Shown: positions 376 through 14,004 of the stretch, one piece after another
How positions within the stretch are numbered: the first letter of the stretch is position 1
Layout of the letters: every line of letters begins with the position of its first letter
DNA from: a virus
DNA length: 64,000 nucleotides
IMG/VR virus record: IMGVR_UViG_3300002920_000014
Coordinates: 1 to 64,000 of that record
Reading direction: 5' to 3' (one strand)
Notes under the pieces: model-generated
Databases searched by the model: none
Told to the model about the DNA's origin: nothing
The model's input: only the letters and a program-made list of their open reading frames with translations
Translations under genes and position numbers: made by a program

Positions 376-801
376 ATGATGTTGAATGTACGTTTCGCTA
401 CCTGTGACGATTTAGACGAAATTAAAACTTTGTATGACTCTCAGCGACAAGCTTTGGGTTTCGTGTTGCGTCCTTCGTTGGTTGAATCCGTTCATAAGAA
501 TGAACTACTGGTCGCTTGGGATGAAAAGTTAGTGGGGGCTGTGCATTACCACCATCGACGAGACCATCAGACGACTCTGTACCACATTGCGGTGCAAGAA
601 AACCAGAGACGGCGCGGCATCGGTGCTGCTTTGGTGTCGGCTCTTATTCGGGAATGCCAAGCTCGGCAAGCCCGCTGCATCCTGCTCAAATGTCCTCAAG
701 AGTTGCTCTCCAATCAGTTTTATAAAGCTATGGGTTTTCAACTTCGAGGTCAAGACATAGGCAAGCACAGACCATTAAATATGTGGGTGCTGCCTTTGTA
801 A
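376..801 (+). CDS. GNAT-family N-acetyltransferase
   Basis: The acetyl-CoA binding motif Q/R-x-x-G-x-G/A is seen as QRRRGIGAAL, followed by a typical GNAT C-terminal beta-strand region. The ORF is visibly more GC-rich than its flanks. Confidence 0.75.
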   Translation: MMLNVRFATCDDLDEIKTLYDSQRQALGFVLRPSLVESVHKNELLVAWDEKLVGAVHYHHRRDHQTTLYHIAVQENQRRRGIGAALVSALIRECQARQARCILLKCPQELLSNQFYKAMGFQLRGQDIGKHRPLNMWVLPL

Positions 802-919: not shown

Positions 920-1612
920 ATGTCTTCTAAGCCCCAAGATTCATTAATTGATGTTCTACTTGATGTTCCTGAAGAAGTTAAACCACATATTAAATCTGTC
1001 GTCAAGGTAACTGGTGGCGCCGCTGTGACGGAACAGGGCAAGATGCGTGTTGTTTTTAATGCTAGAGTCATTCGTGAGCAACAAGTAAGAGCAAACATGC
1101 TCATCGCTTCTCGACAGATTCCTGTCGATATTGACGCTGAAGTTACGATTGCTCATCCCTTGGTTGTTATGCTCATGGCGTCTACGGAAGGGATGGCATC
1201 GCAAGATTTGACACGGTTTGCTATTTCTAGTGTTAAGTCTTACTACGAAAATGCTAAAGTTGAAGCTCTTTCTGATGCTTTTACTTTAGCAATGACCGAT
1301 TTTTGCTCTTTCGAGGGTCTTGATATTGAGACTCCTGAAGAGGAATCTGTTGACTCAGAAGACGCTTACGTGCCTGACTATATGCGTAAAGTTGTTCAGT
1401 TGCCCCCCATCACCAAAAACATTTCGAACCCCATTGAAAAACGTCTTATGATTATCAATAAGTTCCTGAATAAAGCTGGGTTTGAATTTGCTGTTCTATT
1501 TAGGTCCACTATCGAAGATGCTTGGACTAAAGCCATCCAAGAAGCCGGGGATAGGGGGCGTGCTGTTGAAGTAGCTCCAGATGGTTTTCGTACTCCAAGA
1601 GCTCGTAAGTAA
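920..1612 (+). CDS. hypothetical virion-module protein (acidic C-terminal half)
   Basis: 230-aa ORF preceded by GGGAGGA about 10 nt upstream of the ATG. It lies upstream of the tape-measure gene. Function not recognisable. Confidence 0.6.
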   Translation: MSSKPQDSLIDVLLDVPEEVKPHIKSVVKVTGGAAVTEQGKMRVVFNARVIREQQVRANMLIASRQIPVDIDAEVTIAHPLVVMLMASTEGMASQDLTRFAISSVKSYYENAKVEALSDAFTLAMTDFCSFEGLDIETPEEESVDSEDAYVPDYMRKVVQLPPITKNISNPIEKRLMIINKFLNKAGFEFAVLFRSTIEDAWTKAIQEAGDRGRAVEVAPDGFRTPRARK

Positions 1613-1616
1613 CTAC

Positions 1617-1994
1617 ATGTATTTGATGGCTCCGCTCGTCAAAGTGAAGAGAACCGTCATGATCGACGGTTCTCCAGCAATTGTAGATACATGGGTGAGA
1701 GTTACGGAGCGTTATGAAAATGTTTTGAAACTGTGTAATGGTGACTCTAATTTGGCAAAAAAGCACAAAAAAGAGTTGTTTGGATCGGACAAAGAAATGA
1801 TATTTCCAGATCTTTACAATCTTGCCTCCATTGCCAAAGAATTGGGAATACCTTATCATGAATTTAACAAAATACCTCTCCATGAACGAGCTATTATGAT
1901 TGTGCAATATTATATCAGTGGAATGTTGGAGACGTTGCGTAGGCACGATGACATCATAGAGAGGAACACAGAAAAACAATCTTCTAAGAAATAG
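1617..1994 (+). CDS. hypothetical protein (start uncertain: 1581, 1617 or 1626)
   Basis: ORF 1581..1994. The ATG at 1617 lies just after the upstream stop at 1612. Confidence 0.45.
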   Translation: MYLMAPLVKVKRTVMIDGSPAIVDTWVRVTERYENVLKLCNGDSNLAKKHKKELFGSDKEMIFPDLYNLASIAKELGIPYHEFNKIPLHERAIMIVQYYISGMLETLRRHDDIIERNTEKQSSKK

Positions 1995-2008: not shown

Positions 2009-3073
2009 ATGTCAAAAACTAAAGTTGATAAGTACTTAGAAAGTATGATAGGACTTGACCCTGTTCGTGTTGGTTCTCTTCTTAATGCTAACGCTGAAGT
2101 TACTGCTGAAACAGTAATAAAACAATTAGATAAGTTCATTAAAGCTATAGCTGATACAAGCGGTGGTCGTTCTGCTGGCTCTCTTAAAGGGTATCATGGT
2201 GCTTTAGTTAAATCTAAAGCTAAGAGGTTTGTGCCTATAGTTCTTCCGTCGAGTGGTGTAAAAATATACGTTAATCAACCTTCTGTTTACGTAGAAGCCC
2301 CCGACCACCACAAGAAGATACGGCACGGTAAAGGGGTTCGTCAACACCTTCATGTTTTTGACTTACTTGATGAAGGCCGTAAAGCTTTGCCACGTAAGCA
2401 AGTAGGTGGTTATGCTTTGCACAATTTAACAGACACTGGAATAACCCCCAGAACTTATGCTGCCGGTAAGCAAAGACGTGAAGATGGTGTTATCAAGAAG
2501 CCAGTTAGGTACGAGCCTAGAACACAAAAAGTTATGTATGTTAAGGCAAGAGTTGCGTCTATAACTACTGGTGCTGGCACTTACACTATAACACGACCTG
2601 AACCTCGTGTAGACCCAAGACGTCAAGTTGCTGTTAGCAGAAAGAGGTTAAAAGAGGATGAAGTCACCAGTAAAGACCTTAAAGCTCAGGTGTCTGCTAA
2701 GAGAGAGTTTATACAACAGCGCATTGACGAATTAAGAGATAGAATGAAAACTGAATATGTAAATAGAACAGGCAGAAAGACTATTAGACCTCAAGACGCT
2801 GAATTGATGAAAAAAGAAATAGAAGCATTTAAGCTTTCTATGAGAGAAAAACTTATCGGCCCTATTCTACTTGAACAAGCTAGGAGAAATGCTGCTAGAC
2901 GGGCCGCTAATGCTAACAAGAAAGCCGGCGTTATGTACGTTCGTGGTGGCATAGAGGCTGTTATGCCTAGACGGTTGTATCAAAGAGCTTATAAACAAGC
3001 TAAAAAATCTACTGTTGGCAAGGGTGCTTACTTATTCGATGTTGTATTAGTTAAAAATGTTACTCTTAAATAG
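2009..3073 (+). CDS. hypothetical, strongly basic (K/R-rich) protein
   Basis: 354-aa ORF with GAAAGGA upstream of the ATG. It lies immediately upstream of the tape-measure gene. Confidence 0.6.
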   Translation: MSKTKVDKYLESMIGLDPVRVGSLLNANAEVTAETVIKQLDKFIKAIADTSGGRSAGSLKGYHGALVKSKAKRFVPIVLPSSGVKIYVNQPSVYVEAPDHHKKIRHGKGVRQHLHVFDLLDEGRKALPRKQVGGYALHNLTDTGITPRTYAAGKQRREDGVIKKPVRYEPRTQKVMYVKARVASITTGAGTYTITRPEPRVDPRRQVAVSRKRLKEDEVTSKDLKAQVSAKREFIQQRIDELRDRMKTEYVNRTGRKTIRPQDAELMKKEIEAFKLSMREKLIGPILLEQARRNAARRAANANKKAGVMYVRGGIEAVMPRRLYQRAYKQAKKSTVGKGAYLFDVVLVKNVTLK

Positions 3074-3093: not shown

Positions 3094-6000
3094 ATGGCTG
3101 CTGGTGTAAGTGGTTTTAATCTAGAAGTTCTTTCGGAACTGGTTAGTAAGCTAGACCAAGTTTATGTCAAACTTAGTCAGGTCGAGGAAAGACTTGCTAC
3201 AATAAGCTCTACTGATCTAACTTTAACCATATCTGGCAGAACAGCAGAGACGCTTAACACTTTAGTTCAAAATTTTGAAAAACTTCAAAACTTAGACTCT
3301 GAGTCCGTATCTAATATTGCTAAGAATCTTTCTAATGCTTTAGATCAGCTCAATAAGTCTGATATTAATGACAGGCTTTATAAGTTGCAGTTACCTGAAA
3401 CTTTCTTACAGTCTGCTAAAGGTCTCAATGCTTTCGCATCTGCTATAGCCAGACTTGGTAGAAGTGATGTTGACGTTGGTTTGTCTATAGCTAAGTTATC
3501 ATTCTCACTTAAATCATTAGTCGATATAGACGTATCTTCTATAAAATCAGACAATTTTAATGTGTTTTTTGAAGTCGGTAAGAGTTTAGCATCTTTTGCG
3601 CTTTCTTTTAACCGTCTTTCTAGGCTATCAGAGAGTGATTTTAGCAACATAACCACTAACGTTATGAATTTTATTAAAAACTTTTCTTCTTTTAAAATAC
3701 CACAAACTTTTGATAGACAAATATTAGACATATCTAAGTCTGTTTCTAATATAGCGTCTGTCTTTAAAATCACTAGTAGTTTACCACTTGATTATGATAT
3801 TACACCATTTTTTGTTATTCTCGATGATTTTATAGACTATTTAGCTCTTGCATCAGATGAAATATCAAAAATAGAAAAAGTTGATTTACTTTTTGTTATC
3901 TCTAGATTGTCCCGTAATATGATTGATTTTATAAAGTTAGCTGGTTCAAAGTCGGATAATCTAAACGTAAAAAATATGTTTTCTGTTTTTGATGATCTTA
4001 TACATTATTTCAGCACTATATCTGATAAAATAAAATCCGTGCAAGATCTTAATGATTTGTCCGTTTTATTCAAGTCTTTTTCACAGTTAGCAAATTTTTT
4101 TAGAGTTGCTAAATCAATAGCGGTAGACTTTGATATAAAGGGTGTAATTGCAATTTTTGAGTATTTTATTGGTTACATTATTAGGGTGTCTAATCGTGTA
4201 TCAAAATTAGAAGGCATAGATAGTTTATCTTCTATATTCAAATATTTTTCTCAACTAGGTGAATTCTCAAAGTCAACAAGAACAATTACTGGATCTTTTG
4301 ATTTCACCCCCATATTTACTGTTCTTGATCAATTTATACAGTTTTTAATTAAAACATCTGACAACGTTCCAAAATTAGATAGTATAAAAGATATTATATC
4401 ATCTTTAAGATTGTTTATTAAAGTTTCAGAATTAACAATTGCTTTAGAAAATAATTCTTCTATCACTAAAAATAATCTAACTCACATGTTTGATTCACTA
4501 AAAATTTTTATAGATATTATATCTGAAGAATTAAAAGTTAATACTAGAGTAGTAGATAATCTTACAACTTTACGCATTATCTTAGAATCTATACGTGATT
4601 TGTTCAGATTATCTAAAATAGTCAGCAACGATCCAGATTATTATAAAAAGTTAGCAGATTTGGTAAGTATAATACCTATATTAAATAATTTTACAAACCA
4701 ACTTAAGCAAATTCAAACTGTACCAAATGAATCTGTTGTTTTCTTTAAAAAGTTGTCTGAAGTTATTAGAAATATAAGCTATATTACTACAATAAAAGAA
4801 AATTTTAATGTTTCAATTATAGACAAAATTATTAATCAACTTATTACGACAATAGCTAATGTCTATACTAAGTTAAACAATGGACAACTTATTAAATTCG
4901 ATCAAATATTCCCTAGTATTCAATCCTTAATACTATCCATAAGAAGATTTATTAATACTATTATTTCTAATAAAGGACTATTAGAAGATTCAAGTAAAGT
5001 TGAAACCATATTTAAGAATATGAAAAAACTATTAGATGGGATACCCGATTTAATAGGATCAGTGGTCGGACCTATTAAATTTACTACAGATATAGGTGCT
5101 AGATCTGTAGCCAGGATATTAAAAGACGTAGGTCCTCTTTTAACTTTTATATTTAAGGACCTAGTAAATATAATAGACGAACAAACTATAAGTACTAACC
5201 TAAAAAACTTGCTTAAAAGAGGACTATTGTTACGATTGACAGCAGCGGCTTTTGGTATTTTTATGGACGCCATAATGATGCCTTTCAAAGCCATAGAAAA
5301 TGCAAAATTAGGGGGTATTGGCGACTTTACTAGCGGATTTGGTAGATTACTTGAAGGGGTATCTTCATTTTCTAGATTCATAAAAAGTTTGCTTGAAATA
5401 AACCTAAAGTTCGATAAAACCACTTTTATAGAGATAACGAAAATCGTTGGATTTATAGGTCTACAAGTCGGTCTTTTAATTTTAGCATTAGCTCCTGTGG
5501 CTTTTTTAAACCCTACAAAGCTATCTGCACTGGGTGATATAAGTAAATCGTTTAGGTACGTACTCGATTTCTTTTCGTTTGTCAACTCTCCCGATTTTGT
5601 TTCAAAAGCTGGTATAGCAGTAGCCCTTAGTGTTGGCACACTATTAAATAAATTCTTTAAAACAGTTGTAGCTGGTGGGTTCATAACATATTTGTTACTT
5701 ATTTTTGCTAGTATGGCCAAGTTAGGTGGTTCTGACTTAAAGTATGTACCTGATGTTATTAAATCTTTGAAATACGTAGGAGAATTTATAAGATCTTTAA
5801 ACGATAACATATTCAGTAACGCTAATTTAATAACCGATGGTCTTCTTAAATCATTAAACGAATATACCAAGATATTTAGAGCCATAAGTCAAGGTGGGTT
5901 TGTAATTTCCATTCTTATAGCGCTTGGGATTTTAACTCGTTTAGCGGGAGAAAACACAAAATTCTTACCCGATGTTATTAAATCGCTAAGCAGCATATCT

Positions 6001-9000
6001 GATTTTATTACACAGTTACAATCTAATGTGTTTAAAAATGCTAATTTAATAACAGACGGATTATTAGGCAGTTTAAACACTAGCACTAAAACTTTTAGAG
6101 CAATATCCCAAAGTGGTTTTATAACTTCTTTGTTCTTGTTCTTAGGGGTGATGAGTAAGTTAGCTGGTCAAAATATGGCTTACTTACCAGATACTATAAT
6201 ATCTCTAAAAGTAATATTTGATTTTGTAGACTCTATGCAACAGACTGTGTTCAGAAACGCCAATATTGTAACAGATGGTTTGTTGAGTAATCTAACACAA
6301 TCAACTCAAATATTTAGAGCCACAGTTCAATCTGGATTTATAGGTTCTATTTTGCTGTTCATAGGGTTTATGTCTAAAATAGGTGGCGTTAACTTACAAT
6401 TCGCACCTGAAGTCTTAAAGAATCTTTATGTTATATTCTCTTTTGTAGAAAAACTTCAAACTACTGTATTTAAATCGGTCAATTTGATTACTGATGGTCT
6501 ACTTCAAGATTTAACCAGATCTACTAAGACTTTTAACGCTTTATCACAAAGTGGGTTTATAAACTCTATATTGTTAGTTATAGGTGTAATGTCAAGACTA
6601 GGTGGTGAGGACTTACAATATGCGCCAGCTGTTCTGAACAGTTTATCCTCTGTTTTTAACTTTATTGAAGGTCTTCAGACTAACGTATTTAAATCTGCAA
6701 ACATTATCAAAGATGGACTCTTTGAGGACCTAACAAAAACTACTAAAATGTTTAACGCTTTATCACAAGGAGGATTTGTATCTTCTTTGTTACTTGTGAT
6801 AGGGGTTTTATCAAAACTTGGCGGTTCTGGTCTAAAAGACATACCGAGTGTTTTATCCTCACTACCTTATTTAGGATCTTTCATAGATTCTATAAACTCT
6901 ACCGTGTTTAGGTCGGCTAACTTAATAAGTGATGGTTTGTTAGCAGATCTTAATAAAAATACTAAAGTGTTCAGAGCGTTGACTCAAAGTGGGTTTTTAT
7001 CTTCAATTCTTTTGGCTCTTGCCGCGTTCTCAAAACTTGCCGGCGTTAACACTCAGTACGTAGGTCCGGTATTACAAGCCTTGCCAGCTATAGGCACACT
7101 TATAGAGTCTTTGAACCGTACAATATTTTCATCGGCCAATTTAATACAAGACTGGTTATTAAAAGATTTTAATGATCAGATTAAGATGTATAGATCATTG
7201 ACTCAAGGGGGTTTTGTTGCTGCATTACTTGGCTTAATAGGAGCTATGGCACGTCTTGGCGGTTCTGCTTTACAATATGTACCTGGTATACTATCGTCGT
7301 TACCAGTTTTAGCTGATTTCTTGTCACAATTAAGAAAAACTATATTTGCTAATGCCGATCTCGTAACTGAAAGTGGACCTTTAGAAGAAGTAAATAAGAC
7401 TGCTAAAAAATTCAGAGCGTTGACACAAGGTGGTTTTCTGTCGTCAATATTGCTGATGATAGGTGTGATGACTCGAATTGGTGGTTCTAATCTACAATAC
7501 GCAGATAAAGCAGCTGTTGCAATAAAAGCTGTTACGGACTTTCTGTCTGCTGTTTCTCGCAACGTAACTAGTAGCTTTCTGGACTACATACCTATTATAT
7601 CGGATATTAAGAGAGCTTCTGAGCTATTTAAAGCTATAGTTCAGTCAGGTCTTTTTTCTCTTGCAGCTGTAGTGTTTTTATTGGCGACGCGCTTGTCTAA
7701 CGTTTCTGCTATAACTTCTATGGTTAATTTTTTTGATTCTATGAGTAAGTTGTACGTATCTCTCAAATCGTCTGCTAAAAATGACTTATCAATGGAGAAC
7801 GTTAAAACTTACTTCGCTCAAGTAGACTTTATACTTAATTCTATACGTCGACTAAAACTTAGTAAAAATGTAGATAGTTCTTTTTTGAACTCTGTAATTG
7901 GTCTCATATCAGCATTAAGTAACATAAAAGTCGATTTACCTGATACTCTTACTAGAATTGCTCCTGCTTTTAAAGATTTTGTTAGTTCGTTTAACAGTCT
8001 CAACATAGACGATAGATCATCAAAGTCTATAGTTAGAATTATAGATTCGTTAAAAAACATACCTAGAAACATACCTAATATACCAAAAATAGATGTAAAT
8101 GCACCAAAGTCTACGAACACTGCATATAGAAACTCTATAACGGAACTTAATAGTCTTCTCTCTATCATAGATAGAGTTACTTCAGCTGTTAAGTCTATGT
8201 TCCAAGCTTTTGCTTCTTTAACTAATATAGTTGGTTTAGTAAATAACGTGTCTAGAAGTGTAGTTGAGCTAGGCAGAAACGTTAGAGAAGTCGGAGACAA
8301 CATCATGCAGGCTGGCCAAAATATGGGCCAAGTATTTACTGGATTTCTCCGTAATCAAACGTTCTCTACAGTATCTGAATTTGATAAAATAGGTACTCAA
8401 CTTCAAGTTTTTGGTGGTCTTACAAATGAAGCCAGACGTGAAGCAGAAGATTTTGCACTTCAAATAGGCAAAAATTACCCGTTATCTGCTAATGAAGCAC
8501 TACAAGCTACAACCGATCTTATAAAAGCTGGTCAAAGTTTAGCTTCTACTAAATTCATTCTACCTAGTGCTTCTGATTTAGCGGCTCTTAGTGGGTCTTC
8601 TTTACCCGACGCCACTAATTTGTTAATCTTAGCAGAAAGTACTTTTAGCTCTTTTAGAGATGGCGTAGAAGGATCTTTTGAAAACATAGATAAAGCAGCT
8701 GACATACTCTCTGCGGCAGCAGACGCTAGTACAGCTTCGGTTCAAAGTTTAGGTGAGGGTTTAGCTAACGTATCATCAACTGCTAATATTGCAGGTATTA
8801 CTCTTGAAGAAACAGCCGCCATACTTGCTATACTGGATGAAAGCGGAAAGAAAGGAGCGGAAGGTGGTACGGCGCTTGCATCTATGTTTAACAGTTTAAC
8901 AAAACCAAAAACACAAAAGGCGCTAAGTGATTTACAAAGAACTGTTAGAGGTTTTGGTAAAGAGTTCAAAGATTTAAATGTAAGTTTATACAATCCTGAT

Positions 9001-12000
9001 GGATCTAGAAGGAATATCAATGATTATTTTAATAGTTTAGGTATAGCCCTTAAAGCTATAGAAGAGAGGCAAGGTACAAAAGGTGTAGATGCTTACATAA
9101 ATAGACTAGCTGACACTTATGGTAAACAAGGTTTACAAATTATCCTAGCTGGTGGCACTGACGCTATTAAAAACATGATAGAAGCAATGAACGATGTTGC
9201 CCCTGCGTCAGAACGCGCAGCGTCTATGCTTGATAATTTTGCTGGGGATGTAGAGCAACTCAAAGGATCTGTAGAAACTTTATATGTTAAAGCACTAAAG
9301 CCTTCCCTCGAAGAATTTTTTAGACCTTTTGTTAAGATTGGCAGATTAGTAGTAGATACTCTGATAAGTATGGATACAAAAATTGTATCTTTCTTAGGAA
9401 GTATGTTATCTGTGTCTGTTACGGGTGTAGGTAGCTTAGCAGCTTTAACGCTATCTTTTGGCGGTTTGCTCAAGGTAGGTGGGGCTGTTATATCCTCTCT
9501 AGGTTATATGATAAATGTACTAAAATTTGCAACTTGGTTTATGGGTTTATTATCCGGTTCTGTTATAGGGCTTGTGACTGCATTTACTGCACTGACTGTA
9601 ATAGTTCCAGTAATAGCCGGTGTAACGGCCACCTTTAAGAGCTTATATACCATACTCAGTCAAGACTTAGGAGGTGCTGCATCAGGAATCAGAAATGTAT
9701 TCGGTGTGTTAGGAGAATTTTTCTCTTCAATAAGCGAACTAGGTAACTCCGTTATAAACCTTATCAAAGAAGCTTTTGGTGACGGTGCTGGTACGAACGG
9801 CCTCTTAGATGCTGCTGGAGCGAGCATAGCTAACTTCTTTAACAACATAGCATCGGGATTGAAAAACGGTGCAATTGGACGTGTTACACAAGCGTTCAAA
9901 GACATGGCTGGTATCATTACTGCTTTTACCTCAGTGATGACAGTGGAGTCTAGACGTGCCAAACAGATAGAATCACGTAACAGACGTATGACCGAAGACG
10001 GTATATTTTCCGAAGAAGATATAGAAGCTTCTGTTAAATCAACAGAAACTAACTTTGATAAAGCTTATAAATCTCTTATCGATAACGTTGTTAAAAACAA
10101 CAAGTTGTTTAAAAAAGTATTTGGTGAAAGCTTTTCTCCTGATCAGTTCATTCAACTTGCCGAGAGCTTAAGAAGCAATTTTAACACCATCGGCAATGTT
10201 ATCGCCGATTTTAGAAAGCGTATATCTGAAGGAGTTGTCGGAGGTAATTTAAGTTTACCTGAATTGTTAGGACTTGGCAATGATACTGCTGGTAAAATAG
10301 CAGGAGAACTGGCAACAATTTTTGGCACTCTGTTCAATATAGATTTGTCACAAGTAGCAGCTAATTTTACAAACGGTGGTTTTATTGCGGGTATACAAGA
10401 TCTGTTTAGATCACTAATATCAAAAGCAGGTGAAGTTTTACTTAATAACAAAGAATCTTTAAGAACAGCCTTTATAGGTGTCTTAGAGTTTGCTTTTAGC
10501 CCCGTTAAACTTGTTGGGTTAATTGGAGATATATTTGATATAAAAGCACTTCAAGACATAGCTTCTGGGTTTGAAGAAGTTATGAAAAACGTGTTTGGTG
10601 GAATATTTGACACTTTAGTAGCTTTGCTTTCAGGTAAAGATATTGAAACAGCCCTCAATGAAGGGTTTGGTAAAACTTTTAACTCTATAATAGAGTTGAT
10701 AAGAGGGGTCGGTAGATCTATATCCCTCTTGTTTAAGTACATTTCGGAATCAATAAGTTCTTTTATATCCTCAATAGGAATAAGTGGTGAAACAGTAACC
10801 TCTGTTGTAAATGACATAATAAAAGCTTTAGCTGACGTTATAAAGATAATAAATGACGAATTTTTTACCCCGCTCGCAGAAGAAGGATTATTCGCCGCTC
10901 TTGGTAACGTGTTGAAACTGGCTTTTGAAACTATAAAAACGGTAGTCGCAGATATTATTAGTTACTTATCGACTATTGATATAGCCAGTGTTGTATCAAC
11001 TTTCGTAGCGACGTTATCCTCCAATTTAGTCAGTGGCTTGTCCTCTGCACTTTCCACAGCTGTTTCTTCTGTAGGCGGCGATACTAATTCTCTTAAATCT
11101 CTTTTTGAAACTACTCTAAGCAGCTTATTCGATATAAGTAGTACAGGTTTAGAAGGAGCGTTCGCTACTTTACCAGCAGCTTTATCTGGAGCACTTGCGA
11201 CAGCGCTCACTGCAGGCATTGAGCTTCTTGGGAGTACTCTGAACCTTGATGTGTCTGCAGTAACACAACGTATTAACGATACGTTACAGAGCATTTTTGA
11301 CGGCATCAAAGATCTCGTTGGTTTTGGTGAAGAAAACGGCATCATAGATAACATAAGGAAATTTGTAGATACGATACAAAAGTTGTTCGATGTTATAACG
11401 GGAAACAACACAGATAACGCTTCTAAGACAGCGTATAATTTAAACATACTAACAGCGGCACTACAATCGATCGCTAATTTGCCTTTAGCGATTATAGATC
11501 AGGCTATACGCACCATAGACTCTTTCTTTGACTTTATTGGGTCACTTGAACCTCAAGACATAGCTTTGGTTGCAGCAGGTATAGTTACTTTTGCTGGTGC
11601 TTATACAGTATTGACTACCGCTGCATCTTTAGGTGGTATAGCAAATCTACTAGCTATGAAAGGTTTGTTTGGAACTTTAGGGACTATTGCTTGGTCAGTC
11701 ATAAGCGGCGGCATAAGTGCTGTAGCCGGCGCTATAACAACCCTTATGAACTCTGTTGTTGGTAAGATGATTGGTGTTGCATCAGTAGTCCTCGTCATAG
11801 CTACTTTTGTTCAAAATCTTGGTCAATTAAAAGACGTTATTGATAACCTTCTCAAAGGTGACTTATTCGGAGCATTGGGTGAAGCCATACAAGGATTGAT
11901 TGACTTCTTAGGAGACATAGGTATCAATCTTCTTAAACTTTTAGGCTTCGATGAAGGATTCATACGTGGTGTACAAACAACTCTTGACCAAGTTGGGGTA

Positions 12001-14004
12001 CTCATAAATCTGCTGTTCACTGGTCTTGGTGTACAAATCACTTCATTTTTTGAAAACGTCTTCAACAAAATAGGCTATTTCTTTTCTACACAGCTACCTT
12101 TAATTCTTGCTAAAGCTGGGGCTGAGGCAGTAAGTCTAGCAAACCCAGACCGTGCTATAGATGGTCAAATAGCGGGCATAGAAAAATATTTAGGAGGAAC
12201 GGATTTTAGCGCAGCGAAAGATTTAGCAAGTACTACAGATGGTAGTTTTATACGTCAATTTACTAACACAGGTAATGCACTTAACGACGCTATTTCAGAT
12301 TATGCTAGAAAAACACTTGTGTCTAACATAGATAACTTTGTAAGATTTTTGAATGAAGAGTCTTTATCCACAGAAGGTTTTAGCACGGATATAGGTGCTC
12401 TTAACCTCGAACAATACGTAGGAGCTCTGAACGCTAGTGGCGGTGTAGATGAAGCAATTGGCAGAGCTTTTGCTATGGGGTATACCGATCTTGCAAATCA
12501 GATCATCGCTGAAGCTGACGCTAAAGGTTACAAGTTTGATATAGCTCCAGTTATCAATAATGCAGCCAGAGAAATAGTCAATTCAGTTGGTCAACAAGGC
12601 ATGTCTATGACCCCTGAAATGGTGGACTCTGCTGTAGCTCAGTTAGAAACCATGCGTGCAGAGCTAGTTGAGAGAGGTTTCTCTACCGATGGGGTAGACT
12701 CCGAAATTGCTCGTGTTCAGGGCTATTTTAGTATGCTTGTAAGTGCTGCTGCGAAAAGTAGTGAGGGGGCGGCCGAAGAGGCTGGTAGAGCTATAGGAGA
12801 AACTGCTTCAAGGGGTATAACGAATGGTATGTCTAACGTTGAAATTAGTAGTCCTGTTAGTCCACCTACGTCTACTATAACGGAAGACAGTTCAAACATT
12901 CCTTCTAATCCGATAAGTGTACCTGTTGAAGTCAATCCAGTTGTAACTGAAGTTACTCCCATTGCTGAAGATTCTACTAATTTAATTAAAAATTCCTTAG
13001 AAAGTGACATCTCAGAATCTATAGTAGAACTTAGCGTTCCTGCTCAAGCTACATTGGATATTCTGGACGTGGACACGCTGACGCCGGAAGCCATTACGGT
13101 TTTAAGTGAAGTCTTTGCTAAACTAAGTTTAGAACTTAAGGGTGTACATGAAACAATAAACACATTAGTTAAACCAGCTATTAATGAGTTAAGCTTATCA
13201 ATAGAGACGTTAATAAACGTCAATATCTCAAACTTTACAACATCGGCCACCGGTATGGCTAACACATTGACAACAATTGTTCTTCCCTCAATTGAACAAA
13301 TAAAAGCTTCTTTTAACAACATGTCGTTACTAACCATTCCTGTTTTGAACAGTATGCTCATGGTTACATCTAGCATATTATCCATAAATTTCCCAATAAG
13401 TGCTTCGTCTACAGCAACAGCTGTGAAACTAATTGAAGAAGCTTTCTTCAGTCTTGGAAACACTGTAACTCGCGTGACGAGTCTGTTATTGAACGTAGCA
13501 GAAGCCGCTGCCTCTGCCTCACAAAATGCTGCTGATGCAACTGGTAGGATAGCTGAGGCTGCAGTTGGTTCAGCTAATGCAGTAACGAATTCTTTAGGAG
13601 GTGGTTCATCTAAACCTCAAGGAAGAGCCAGTGGTGGTACAGTTAAACAAGGTATGTATCGCATTAACGAACAAGGATCTGAAGTCTTAATTGAACGTGG
13701 TAAGATGTACTTATTGTCTTCCGGCTTAGGTAAGATTGAACCATTGTCAAAAGGTCTACTGCCTAATTTTGATCCTACAGCAAGAACTATGGGGAATAAC
13801 ATTTATTCAGAAATTAGAAAGCCACCGATGAATAGCAACGAGTATTCATACAACACCTATAACGAAGGAGATATTGTTGTTAATGTCACAGTAGATAGCT
13901 CAGCCTCAGCTAAAGAAATATCAAACCGAGTTGCAGAAGCTATTCGTAGACAAAGACCAGAGCAGATAAGTGCTAAAAAGAATTTTAGGAGTAATCAACA
14001 ATGA
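3094..14004 (+). CDS. giant tail tape measure protein (3636 aa)
   Basis: A TP901/PhageMin_Tail-like core is present (FGGLTNEARREAEDFALQIGKNYPLSANEALQATTDLIKAGQSL...). There are hydrophobic helix clusters. The C-terminus is typical of tape-measure proteins (ASGGTVKQGMYRINEQGSEVLIERG). Dit/Tal-like genes follow. Confidence 0.8.
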   Translation: MAAGVSGFNLEVLSELVSKLDQVYVKLSQVEERLATISSTDLTLTISGRTAETLNTLVQNFEKLQNLDSESVSNIAKNLSNALDQLNKSDINDRLYKLQLPETFLQSAKGLNAFASAIARLGRSDVDVGLSIAKLSFSLKSLVDIDVSSIKSDNFNVFFEVGKSLASFALSFNRLSRLSESDFSNITTNVMNFIKNFSSFKIPQTFDRQILDISKSVSNIASVFKITSSLPLDYDITPFFVILDDFIDYLALASDEISKIEKVDLLFVISRLSRNMIDFIKLAGSKSDNLNVKNMFSVFDDLIHYFSTISDKIKSVQDLNDLSVLFKSFSQLANFFRVAKSIAVDFDIKGVIAIFEYFIGYIIRVSNRVSKLEGIDSLSSIFKYFSQLGEFSKSTRTITGSFDFTPIFTVLDQFIQFLIKTSDNVPKLDSIKDIISSLRLFIKVSELTIALENNSSITKNNLTHMFDSLKIFIDIISEELKVNTRVVDNLTTLRIILESIRDLFRLSKIVSNDPDYYKKLADLVSIIPILNNFTNQLKQIQTVPNESVVFFKKLSEVIRNISYITTIKENFNVSIIDKIINQLITTIANVYTKLNNGQLIKFDQIFPSIQSLILSIRRFINTIISNKGLLEDSSKVETIFKNMKKLLDGIPDLIGSVVGPIKFTTDIGARSVARILKDVGPLLTFIFKDLVNIIDEQTISTNLKNLLKRGLLLRLTAAAFGIFMDAIMMPFKAIENAKLGGIGDFTSGFGRLLEGVSSFSRFIKSLLEINLKFDKTTFIEITKIVGFIGLQVGLLILALAPVAFLNPTKLSALGDISKSFRYVLDFFSFVNSPDFVSKAGIAVALSVGTLLNKFFKTVVAGGFITYLLLIFASMAKLGGSDLKYVPDVIKSLKYVGEFIRSLNDNIFSNANLITDGLLKSLNEYTKIFRAISQGGFVISILIALGILTRLAGENTKFLPDVIKSLSSISDFITQLQSNVFKNANLITDGLLGSLNTSTKTFRAISQSGFITSLFLFLGVMSKLAGQNMAYLPDTIISLKVIFDFVDSMQQTVFRNANIVTDGLLSNLTQSTQIFRATVQSGFIGSILLFIGFMSKIGGVNLQFAPEVLKNLYVIFSFVEKLQTTVFKSVNLITDGLLQDLTRSTKTFNALSQSGFINSILLVIGVMSRLGGEDLQYAPAVLNSLSSVFNFIEGLQTNVFKSANIIKDGLFEDLTKTTKMFNALSQGGFVSSLLLVIGVLSKLGGSGLKDIPSVLSSLPYLGSFIDSINSTVFRSANLISDGLLADLNKNTKVFRALTQSGFLSSILLALAAFSKLAGVNTQYVGPVLQALPAIGTLIESLNRTIFSSANLIQDWLLKDFNDQIKMYRSLTQGGFVAALLGLIGAMARLGGSALQYVPGILSSLPVLADFLSQLRKTIFANADLVTESGPLEEVNKTAKKFRALTQGGFLSSILLMIGVMTRIGGSNLQYADKAAVAIKAVTDFLSAVSRNVTSSFLDYIPIISDIKRASELFKAIVQSGLFSLAAVVFLLATRLSNVSAITSMVNFFDSMSKLYVSLKSSAKNDLSMENVKTYFAQVDFILNSIRRLKLSKNVDSSFLNSVIGLISALSNIKVDLPDTLTRIAPAFKDFVSSFNSLNIDDRSSKSIVRIIDSLKNIPRNIPNIPKIDVNAPKSTNTAYRNSITELNSLLSIIDRVTSAVKSMFQAFASLTNIVGLVNNVSRSVVELGRNVREVGDNIMQAGQNMGQVFTGFLRNQTFSTVSEFDKIGTQLQVFGGLTNEARREAEDFALQIGKNYPLSANEALQATTDLIKAGQSLASTKFILPSASDLAALSGSSLPDATNLLILAESTFSSFRDGVEGSFENIDKAADILSAAADASTASVQSLGEGLANVSSTANIAGITLEETAAILAILDESGKKGAEGGTALASMFNSLTKPKTQKALSDLQRTVRGFGKEFKDLNVSLYNPDGSRRNINDYFNSLGIALKAIEERQGTKGVDAYINRLADTYGKQGLQIILAGGTDAIKNMIEAMNDVAPASERAASMLDNFAGDVEQLKGSVETLYVKALKPSLEEFFRPFVKIGRLVVDTLISMDTKIVSFLGSMLSVSVTGVGSLAALTLSFGGLLKVGGAVISSLGYMINVLKFATWFMGLLSGSVIGLVTAFTALTVIVPVIAGVTATFKSLYTILSQDLGGAASGIRNVFGVLGEFFSSISELGNSVINLIKEAFGDGAGTNGLLDAAGASIANFFNNIASGLKNGAIGRVTQAFKDMAGIITAFTSVMTVESRRAKQIESRNRRMTEDGIFSEEDIEASVKSTETNFDKAYKSLIDNVVKNNKLFKKVFGESFSPDQFIQLAESLRSNFNTIGNVIADFRKRISEGVVGGNLSLPELLGLGNDTAGKIAGELATIFGTLFNIDLSQVAANFTNGGFIAGIQDLFRSLISKAGEVLLNNKESLRTAFIGVLEFAFSPVKLVGLIGDIFDIKALQDIASGFEEVMKNVFGGIFDTLVALLSGKDIETALNEGFGKTFNSIIELIRGVGRSISLLFKYISESISSFISSIGISGETVTSVVNDIIKALADVIKIINDEFFTPLAEEGLFAALGNVLKLAFETIKTVVADIISYLSTIDIASVVSTFVATLSSNLVSGLSSALSTAVSSVGGDTNSLKSLFETTLSSLFDISSTGLEGAFATLPAALSGALATALTAGIELLGSTLNLDVSAVTQRINDTLQSIFDGIKDLVGFGEENGIIDNIRKFVDTIQKLFDVITGNNTDNASKTAYNLNILTAALQSIANLPLAIIDQAIRTIDSFFDFIGSLEPQDIALVAAGIVTFAGAYTVLTTAASLGGIANLLAMKGLFGTLGTIAWSVISGGISAVAGAITTLMNSVVGKMIGVASVVLVIATFVQNLGQLKDVIDNLLKGDLFGALGEAIQGLIDFLGDIGINLLKLLGFDEGFIRGVQTTLDQVGVLINLLFTGLGVQITSFFENVFNKIGYFFSTQLPLILAKAGAEAVSLANPDRAIDGQIAGIEKYLGGTDFSAAKDLASTTDGSFIRQFTNTGNALNDAISDYARKTLVSNIDNFVRFLNEESLSTEGFSTDIGALNLEQYVGALNASGGVDEAIGRAFAMGYTDLANQIIAEADAKGYKFDIAPVINNAAREIVNSVGQQGMSMTPEMVDSAVAQLETMRAELVERGFSTDGVDSEIARVQGYFSMLVSAAAKSSEGAAEEAGRAIGETASRGITNGMSNVEISSPVSPPTSTITEDSSNIPSNPISVPVEVNPVVTEVTPIAEDSTNLIKNSLESDISESIVELSVPAQATLDILDVDTLTPEAITVLSEVFAKLSLELKGVHETINTLVKPAINELSLSIETLINVNISNFTTSATGMANTLTTIVLPSIEQIKASFNNMSLLTIPVLNSMLMVTSSILSINFPISASSTATAVKLIEEAFFSLGNTVTRVTSLLLNVAEAAASASQNAADATGRIAEAAVGSANAVTNSLGGGSSKPQGRASGGTVKQGMYRINEQGSEVLIERGKMYLLSSGLGKIEPLSKGLLPNFDPTARTMGNNIYSEIRKPPMNSNEYSYNTYNEGDIVVNVTVDSSASAKEISNRVAEAIRRQRPEQISAKKNFRSNQQ
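3560..5010 (+). repeat. degenerate ~56-aa repeat series inside the tape-measure N-terminal third (approximate bounds)
   Basis: A recurring pattern F-x-x-h-D-x-F-I-x-Y/F...S-D/N-x-h-x-K-h...L-x-x-h-F-K/R-x-h-S is seen about 8-10 times, for example FFVILDDFIDYLALASDEISKIE, FSVFDDLIHYFSTISDKIKSVQ and FTVLDQFIQFLIKTSDNVPKLD. Confidence 0.6.
5599..7570 (+). repeat. in-frame tandem array, 219-nt (73-aa) period, about 8-9 units, inside the tape-measure gene
   Basis: The anchor motif (N/S)-(A/V)-N-(L/I)-(I/V)-x-D-(G/W)-L starts at 5818, 6037, 6256, 6475, 6694, 6913, 7132 and 7351, exactly 219 nt apart. Each unit also has T-K-x-F-R-A-(I/L)-(S/T)-Q-(G/S)-G-F followed by a hydrophobic helix and L-(A/G)-G. 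Confidence 0.9.

Follow-up and report, generated by a model that had tools for sequence, protein, structure and literature searches.

What does a strictly periodic array of repeats do inside a phage tape measure protein (TMP), and how did it arise? The question is raised by a 64,000-nucleotide (nt) stretch of viral DNA (hereafter, the window), which corresponds to positions 1 to 64,000 of IMG/VR record IMGVR_UViG_3300002920_000014, a complete virus sequence of 73,752 bp with direct terminal repeats of 113 bp. The window contains a TMP gene of 3636 amino acids (aa) at positions 3094-14004 on the plus strand (protein P0001). An inspection of the letters alone (the original prediction) had pointed out eight to nine diverged units of 219 nt within this gene, and had proposed either a modular ruler or a stack of membrane-inserting hairpins. 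Our analysis makes it probable that the ruler has been lengthened by tandem duplication within this lineage, and suggests that the exact period of the array comes from a conserved helical fold. The TMP is the textbook molecular ruler, and the evolution and assembly of very long tails are poorly documented. P0001 appears to have reached its 3636 residues mainly by amplifying two private N-terminal helical modules, while the part from its core to its C-terminus stays at about 1900 residues, as in most relatives.

The gene is a single open frame, and its product scored well above the curated cut-offs of both PF10145 (PhageMin_Tail; 84.3 bits at aa 1786-1963, cut-off 33.2) and TIGR01760 (tape_meas_TP901; 75.5 bits, cut-off 28.8). 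Fourteen PHROG families also matched, covering aa ~1600-2750; 12 of them are annotated as tape measure and two have no function assigned. By its core domain (positions 8449-8982, plus strand), P0001 is thus assigned to the TP901-type tape measure proteins, and the placement of the array inside a tape measure gene was correct. None of the PF10145, TIGR01760 and PHROG matches extends over the region of the array.

Eight strong units of 73 aa occupy aa 880-1464 (positions 5731-7485, plus strand), each recognized by a profile hidden Markov model (HMM) with an independent E of 1e-35 to 1e-38. In the unit alignment they start at nt 5731, 5950, 6169, 6388, 6607, 6826, 7045 and 7264 (plus strand). The anchor A-N-L-I-T-D-G-L and its variants are found at nt 5821, 6040, 6259, 6478, 6697, 6916, 7135 and 7354, so that the eight anchors define seven intervals, each of exactly 219 nt. 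Counting the preceding N codon, this is the series from 5818 to 7351 already described. The period, which was said to be perfectly kept, is exact for units 1-7 but not for unit 8, where one residue inserted after the anchor gives a length of 74 aa. The periodicity was also apparent in analyses of the whole region. BLOSUM autocorrelation over aa 650-1500 peaks at lag 73 (z ~8), the offsets of self-BLAST alignments in the array are multiples of 73, and the power of the hydrophobicity signal is 6.2 at period 73, compared with 0.3 at period 11, 0.7 at period 18 and none at 7.

The array extends beyond the strong units on both sides. The eight-unit profile also picked flanking matches at aa 812-879 (15.4 bits) and aa 1465-1522 (12.3 bits), scores that were obtained against a profile built without those units; the maximum in 200 shuffles of the rest of the protein, compared with the later ten-unit profile, was 9.6 bits. 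The upstream match belongs to a degenerate unit of 66 aa (aa 814-879; positions 5533-5730, plus strand), with K-L-G-G at its end and a charge-free stretch of 19 aa. The downstream match belongs to a degenerate unit of 73 aa (aa 1465-1537; positions 7486-7704, plus strand), with its 19-aa charge-free segment at aa 1514-1532. A possible eleventh unit, the most degenerate, lies at aa 742-813 (positions 5317-5532, plus strand); it was undetected by the ten-unit profile, and is suggested by a hydrophobic peak at aa 784 and a K-bounded charge-free segment of 25 aa. Including this one, eleven hydrophobic peaks run from aa 784 to 1520 with a spacing of 69-78 aa. The array thus spans nt 5533-7704, possibly from 5317, and is slightly larger than the originally proposed interval (5599-7570). 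The count of eight to nine units was right for the eight strong ones, to which two weak ones are added, plus one placed by hydrophobic spacing alone.

The consensus of the unit is x-N-L-Q-Y-x-P-x-V-L-x-S-L-x-x-I-x-x-F-I-x-S-L-Q-x-T-V-F-x-N-A-N-L-I-T-D-G-L-L-x-D-L-N-x-x-T-K-x-F-R-A-L-S-Q-G-G-F-x-x-S-I-L-L-x-I-G-V-M-S-R-L-G-G. The unit alignment reproduces the two motifs singled out before, T-K-x-F-R-A-L-x-Q-G-G-F and the terminal L-G-G (K-L-G-G endings included). The unit is laid out as an amphipathic helix of ~25-29 residues, an N-L-I-T-D-G turn, a second amphipathic helix, and a hydrophobic helix ended by G-G. Hydrophobic residues are 3-4 positions apart in helices 1 and 2, and helix 3 has a mean Kyte-Doolittle (KD) hydropathy of 1.79. 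Conserved positions cluster at the helix ends (Pro7, D36-G37, G55-G56 and G72-G73), a pattern typical of folded helical repeats, and there are conserved aromatics at unit positions 5, 19, 28, 49 and 57. The hydrophobic helices coincide with charge-free segments bounded by K/R on both sides, which are exactly 19 residues long in eight of the eleven periodic positions (22, 22 and 25 in the other three). Their mean KD is 1.25-2.05 and they are long enough to span a bilayer; a 19-residue KD mean (KD19) of 1.6 or more, the classical threshold, is reached by six strong units out of eight and by the flanking units. The array is basic (isoelectric point (pI) 9.5, net charge +15), in a protein whose overall pI is 5.2.

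Structure models of the unit were of low confidence. An AlphaFold (AF2) model of four units was all-helical, with helices at 3-31, 38-54 and 57-74 of each unit, at a predicted local distance difference test score (pLDDT) of 51 and a predicted template modelling score (pTM) of 0.43. A single-unit model, also all-helical (pLDDT 65), had helices at 6-30 and 38-72, that is, with helices 2 and 3 merged. The N-L-I-T-D-G motif is a loop in both. Foldseek with the four-unit model as query gave only weak matches to designed helical repeats, none at E <= 0.001, which is uninformative given the confidence of the model; plectin spectrin repeats were listed at rank 39 (E 0.27) with the same low-confidence query. 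Pfam gave nothing on the array alone, and neither did a PDB sequence search with the unit profile.

The copies are old. Ungapped identity between units is 21-63% in amino acids (30-63% for units 1-7) and 39-65% in nucleotides (47-65% for units 1-7), and the longest in-register exact nucleotide match between units is 18 nt. Tandem Repeats Finder reported nothing on the array. By Nei-Gojobori counting, the mean proportion of synonymous differences between units (pS) is 0.69, near saturation, while that of nonsynonymous differences (pN) is 0.37. The copies are therefore ancient and have been held by purifying selection, and the earlier statement that they are diverged rather than recent duplicates is borne out by the nucleotide identities, the pS and the short longest match. 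Adjacent units are only slightly more similar than distant ones (identity 0.53 vs ~0.45), and there is no even/odd pattern in unit identity that would indicate a 146-aa super-period. Only one indel (insertion or deletion) is seen in eight units, against roughly one substitution per site between copies.

We searched for the 73-aa unit outside this protein and found no homologue. No match was obtained in phage records (megablast and tblastn, 50,697 records), in viral contigs (with the protein and the unit alignment as queries), in metagenome contigs (with the protein), or, when aa 860-1540 were used as query, in a word-indexed set of 5.8 billion proteins; a profile search of 1.84 billion representative proteins returned no true relative. 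The sole other profile match in the last search, a bacterial surface protein of 3946 aa (P0002), was rejected as spurious, being composed of beta-rich repeats with a chance 'YRALVQSG'. As far as these searches reach, they show the 73-aa unit family to be an orphan, lineage-specific one.

The rest of the protein does have relatives, and the comparison with them locates the extra length of P0001. A search with the core region identified eight distant giant TMPs (P0003-P0010, 2456-3070 aa) from metagenomes, in sequencing runs such as SRR12022142 and SRR18465933. Residues 1-90 of P0001 match the N-termini of P0005, P0006 and P0007 in BLAST, and P0001 aligns from aa ~1500-1725 to its end with the relatives from their aa ~240-1120 to their end, the main alignments of this core-to-C-terminus block having 28-45% identity with P0003-P0010. 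The array occupies the stretch that separates the two conserved parts, N-terminus and core. From the core onward, P0001 has 1941 aa, and seven of the eight relatives have 1869-2008 aa (2300 in P0008). The N-region, by comparison, is 1695 aa long in P0001 vs ~440-1120 aa in the relatives.

This N-region contains a second array, of five 56-aa units, at aa 215-494 (positions 3736-4575, plus strand; self-BLAST offsets 56, 112 and 168; HMM independent E 1e-17 to 1e-28). The 56-aa units are helical and have no relation to the 73-aa unit; units 1 to 4 keep an exact register, from which the fifth departs by ~5 residues. Since the C-terminal part is near-constant in length and the N-region varies, the 73-aa array (~730 aa) and the 56-aa array (280 aa) together account for the ~900-residue excess of the N-region over most relatives. 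The suggestion of a modular ruler thus stands in a general sense only: tail length is expected to respond to any in-frame gain or loss in a TMP, as seen with TP901-1 (PMC5099701), and the arrays supply extra N-terminal length with respect to relatives. It is not supported in its more specific form of a fixed tail quantum, to which we return below.

Several of the relatives have N-terminal arrays of their own, in which the period is kept as strictly as in P0001. In P0004, aa 128-518 (L004, 10382-11554) consist of six units of 65, 65, 66, 65, 65 and 65 aa, all of them containing a hydrophobic V-x-x-P stretch. Periods of 65 aa and 58 aa are found in P0006 and P0008, respectively, and the N-region of P0009 has four hydrophobic clusters ~90 aa apart. 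In P0003, P0005 and P0008 we observed no hydrophobic peak in the N-region. Profiles of the 73-aa and 56-aa units gave nothing significant against the eight relatives, and the 65-aa units of P0004 have no detectable homology to the 73-aa unit (hhalign probability 0.9%). The relatives therefore share with P0001 the core-to-C-terminus block, and several carry N-terminal arrays, but these are non-homologous and have fewer copies. The phages encoding P0004 and P0007 are, judging from their contigs (77 and 89 kb), real, if distant, kin: the order of structural genes is shared, and the proteins are 22-47% identical. The best-supported interpretation of this comparison is that the N-terminal part would be the evolutionarily adjustable segment of giant rulers, in which each lineage amplified its own helical module.

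We propose that a helical module of 73 residues was duplicated in tandem and in frame, repeatedly and long ago, in the variable N-terminal part of a TP901-type TMP, and that the resulting ten to eleven modules, with the five 56-aa units, would lengthen the N-region of the ruler. From established TMP biology, applied here to a phage known from its genes, the array would form part of the ruler and be enclosed by the tail tube. In lambda and T4, the length of the TMP determines that of the tail, according to the work cited in PMC13585406, and in-frame deletions in the TP901-1 TMP shorten the tail in proportion to their size (PMC5099701). On this basis, at ~0.15 nm per residue of an extended chain, each module would add ~11 nm and the array ~80-110 nm of tail. 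With less certainty, we suggest that the period has been kept because the helix lengths of a folded or packed repeat tolerate no indels, and not because tail length is quantised. Likewise, the hydrophobic basic helices may serve mainly in the packing of TMP oligomers and as binding sites for assembly chaperones, with membrane insertion as a secondary possibility.

The idea that the exact period implies a tail-length quantum is not supported, because two periods, 56 and 73 aa, coexist within one protein and therefore within one tail. Relatives, moreover, use periods of 65 and 58 aa. The number 73 is prime, the unit has no 7- or 11-residue sub-period, and the conserved positions are helix ends and turns. 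Rare indels are what any helical repeat fold shows.

Four observations weigh against the array as a simple lengthening of the ruler. With its conserved breaks at G-G, D-G and Pro, the module may fold back on itself, in which case it would add far less than 11 nm. The regular [K/R]-x19-[K/R] segments and the basic array charge have a more membrane-like look than a simple spacer would require. The two structure models have low confidence and disagree on the number of helices. Finally, none of the neighbouring structural proteins matched a named tail family, and they gave no indication of whether the tail has a sheath.

The second of these observations is the starting point of an explanation that we regard as possible, but unlikely: that the array is a membrane-active device, whose 10-11 helices per chain (at least 30 per trimer) insert in the host membrane after ejection and form or line a conduit for DNA, any role as a ruler being incidental. 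The length, the hydropathy and the K/R boundaries of the charge-free segments, KD19 values at or above threshold in most units, and the basic character of the array are all consistent with it. Hydrophobic regions of TMPs have long been proposed as channels, and hydrophobic region 1 of the TP901-1 TMP is essential (PMC5099701). However, each unit has a single helix and no hairpin. The flanking charge is similar on both sides in every unit, so the alternation predicted by the positive-inside rule is not seen, and there is no 146-aa super-period; an ordinary alternating topology is therefore not encoded. The three relatives without a hydrophobic peak in the N-region also argue against it, as does the location of the hydrophobic clusters that are common to the family, which come after the core (aa 2097-2181 and 2823-2912 in P0001). 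The N-terminal third, furthermore, would leave the tail last. In TP901-1 itself, the recruitment of chaperones by the hydrophobic regions was judged likelier than membrane spanning (PMC5099701, Mahony et al. 2016). A membrane role of the helices in the array is possible. As worded in the original prediction, the stack of membrane-inserting hairpins is not supported, in view of the single transmembrane (TM)-like helix per unit, the absence of odd/even alternation in flanking charge, and the three of eight relatives that lack hydrophobic helices in the N-region; the part that survives is the presence of one hydrophobic helix of TM length (19-25 aa charge-free) in each unit.

Related to this is the broader possibility, which we consider rather improbable, that the eleven evenly spaced basic hydrophobic helices are a functional periodic device and not a by-product of duplication. 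They could provide registration or docking sites for the negatively charged tube lumen or for the assembly chaperone, or the conduit of at least 30 helices per trimer after ejection. The docking option is tied to the enlarged protein found upstream at the chaperone position in this phage (see below). Under either option, the building of an extremely long tail, or its delivery of DNA, would depend on a dedicated repeating module.

It is similarly doubtful that the units fold in the manner of spectrin repeats into an elastic or spacer element, a three-helix zigzag that would advance ~4-5 nm per unit, not 11 nm, and would tune the flexibility of the tail or the register with the rings of the tube. 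The concentration of conservation at turns (Y-x-P, N-L-I-T-D-G, Q-G-G and L-G-G) fits such a fold, as do the three helices per unit and the helical-repeat arrangement of the four-unit model, with its weak Foldseek matches to designed helical repeats. The same model, however, has low confidence (pLDDT and pTM as given above), its helices 2 and 3 are merged when a single unit is modelled, and no Foldseek match reached E <= 0.001. Nine helices per trimer would also crowd the ~4 nm lumen of a tail tube.

An artefact of repeat mis-assembly or of a false fusion of two genes, conceivable for a metagenome-derived virus record without close relatives, is highly improbable: the divergence between units (39-65% nucleotide identity, with no match longer than 18 nt) rules out that an assembler collapsed or inflated them, the frame is open across 10.9 kb, the conserved N-terminus and core flank the array as in the relatives, and the contig is complete, with its terminal repeats.

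Returning to the duplication array as a lengthened ruler, its components can be compared with those of better known TMPs. The classical rulers are lambda gpH and T5 pb2, whose length sets tail length and whose hydrophobic parts are implicated in a channel formed after ejection. They belong to families different from that of P0001, and to our knowledge neither has a comparable long-period array.

The TP901-1 TMP has 937 aa; its 29 repeats, of 11 or 18 aa, carry W/F markers, and its hydrophobic helices form two clusters of three (PMC5099701). It shares with P0001 the TIGR01760/PF10145 core family, and both are largely helical rulers with internal repeats and hydrophobic regions predicted as TM. 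P0001 differs in its size (3636 aa), in a 73-aa unit without an 11-residue sub-period, and in having a hydrophobic helix in every repeat, 11 in total, evenly spaced and upstream of the core. The type of repeat defined by aromatic markers every 11 or 18 aa (Belcaid 2011; TP901-1, p2) does not describe the 73-aa unit, in which the W/F spacing is absent.

Duplication and loss are known to shape the tandem 11-aa units of TMPs (PMC3271669, Belcaid, Bergeron and Poisson 2011), and a survey of 45,500 TMPs from IMG/VR found tandem repeats in 52% of them (PMC13585406). The principle that rulers grow by internal tandem duplication is already established. The units of Belcaid 2011 are likewise in-frame, tandem, and an adjustable part of the ruler; in contrast to those of P0001, which are synonymously saturated and found in no other protein, they are short (11 aa) and often recent enough for their duplication history to be read at the nucleotide level. 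What is particular to P0001 is the combination of 10-11 copies in a 3636-aa ruler, an orphan unit family, and a K/R-bracketed helix of TM length in every unit. Its units have diverged enough to be handled individually, and would thus offer a natural cassette with which to address how many nm each residue contributes, and whether the helices serve chaperones or the membrane.

We next describe the remaining features of the gene and its surroundings. The two hydrophobic clusters after the core are at positions 9382-9636 and 11560-11829 (both plus strand). The first one (aa 2097-2181), the usual 'transmembrane' region of TMPs, has charge-free stretches of 30 and 37 aa and a KD19 mean of up to 2.43, and falls within the segment over which all relatives align. 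The second one (aa 2823-2912) has charge-free stretches of 33, 34 and 21 aa. GC content (G+C) rises along the TMP gene, from 24-30% at nt 3600-5400, where the 56-aa array and the sequence following it lie, through 31-38% in the 73-aa array to 35-42% in the 3' half. With a genome mean of 40%, the variable N-terminal half is markedly AT-richer than the conserved half.

The order of the structural genes around the TMP is conserved with two relatives. Adjoining the TMP upstream is a strongly basic protein of 354 aa (positions 2009-3073, plus strand). Its homologues in the relatives L003 and L004, 250 and 219 aa long and likewise encoded directly upstream of the TMP, are 28-34% identical to it; with respect to them it has an additional K/R/E-rich insertion of ~110 aa. 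From its position only, it is a putative tail assembly chaperone. Across the three phages compared, the size of this upstream protein grows with that of the TMP, which with three data points is only a hint. A -1 frameshift joining the open reading frame (ORF) at 1581-1994 to that at 2009-3073, in the manner of gpG/gpGT, was not supported: the overlap contains no canonical slippery heptamer, and the second frame becomes open only at nt 1988. In ORF 1581-1994 (plus strand), the initial ~48 codons lack a counterpart in the 95-aa homologues of relatives and overlap the end of ORF 920-1612, so that the true start of this ORF is probably further downstream.

Among the tail genes, just past the genome end, there is a small acetyltransferase-like gene (positions 376-801, plus strand; PHROG acetyltransferase families, E 2e-11), with no counterpart at the same place in the two relatives examined. 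Outside the window, the structural module includes a protein of 493 aa (L002, 8516-9997; genome 70515-71996) that is 38-47% identical to its homologues in relatives. A BNR/Asp-box, sortilin-like propeller region covers its residues ~245-350 (PDB sortilin E 1e-5, with the Pfam match below cut-off), and the protein may be a decorated tail or head protein. Finally, two antisense ORFs lie inside the TMP gene, at 4920-5885 (minus strand, 321 aa) and 7203-7562 (minus strand, 119 aa). Neither matched a Pfam family, and the likeliest explanation for both is that the AT-rich, repeat-coding sequence gives rise to them as by-products.

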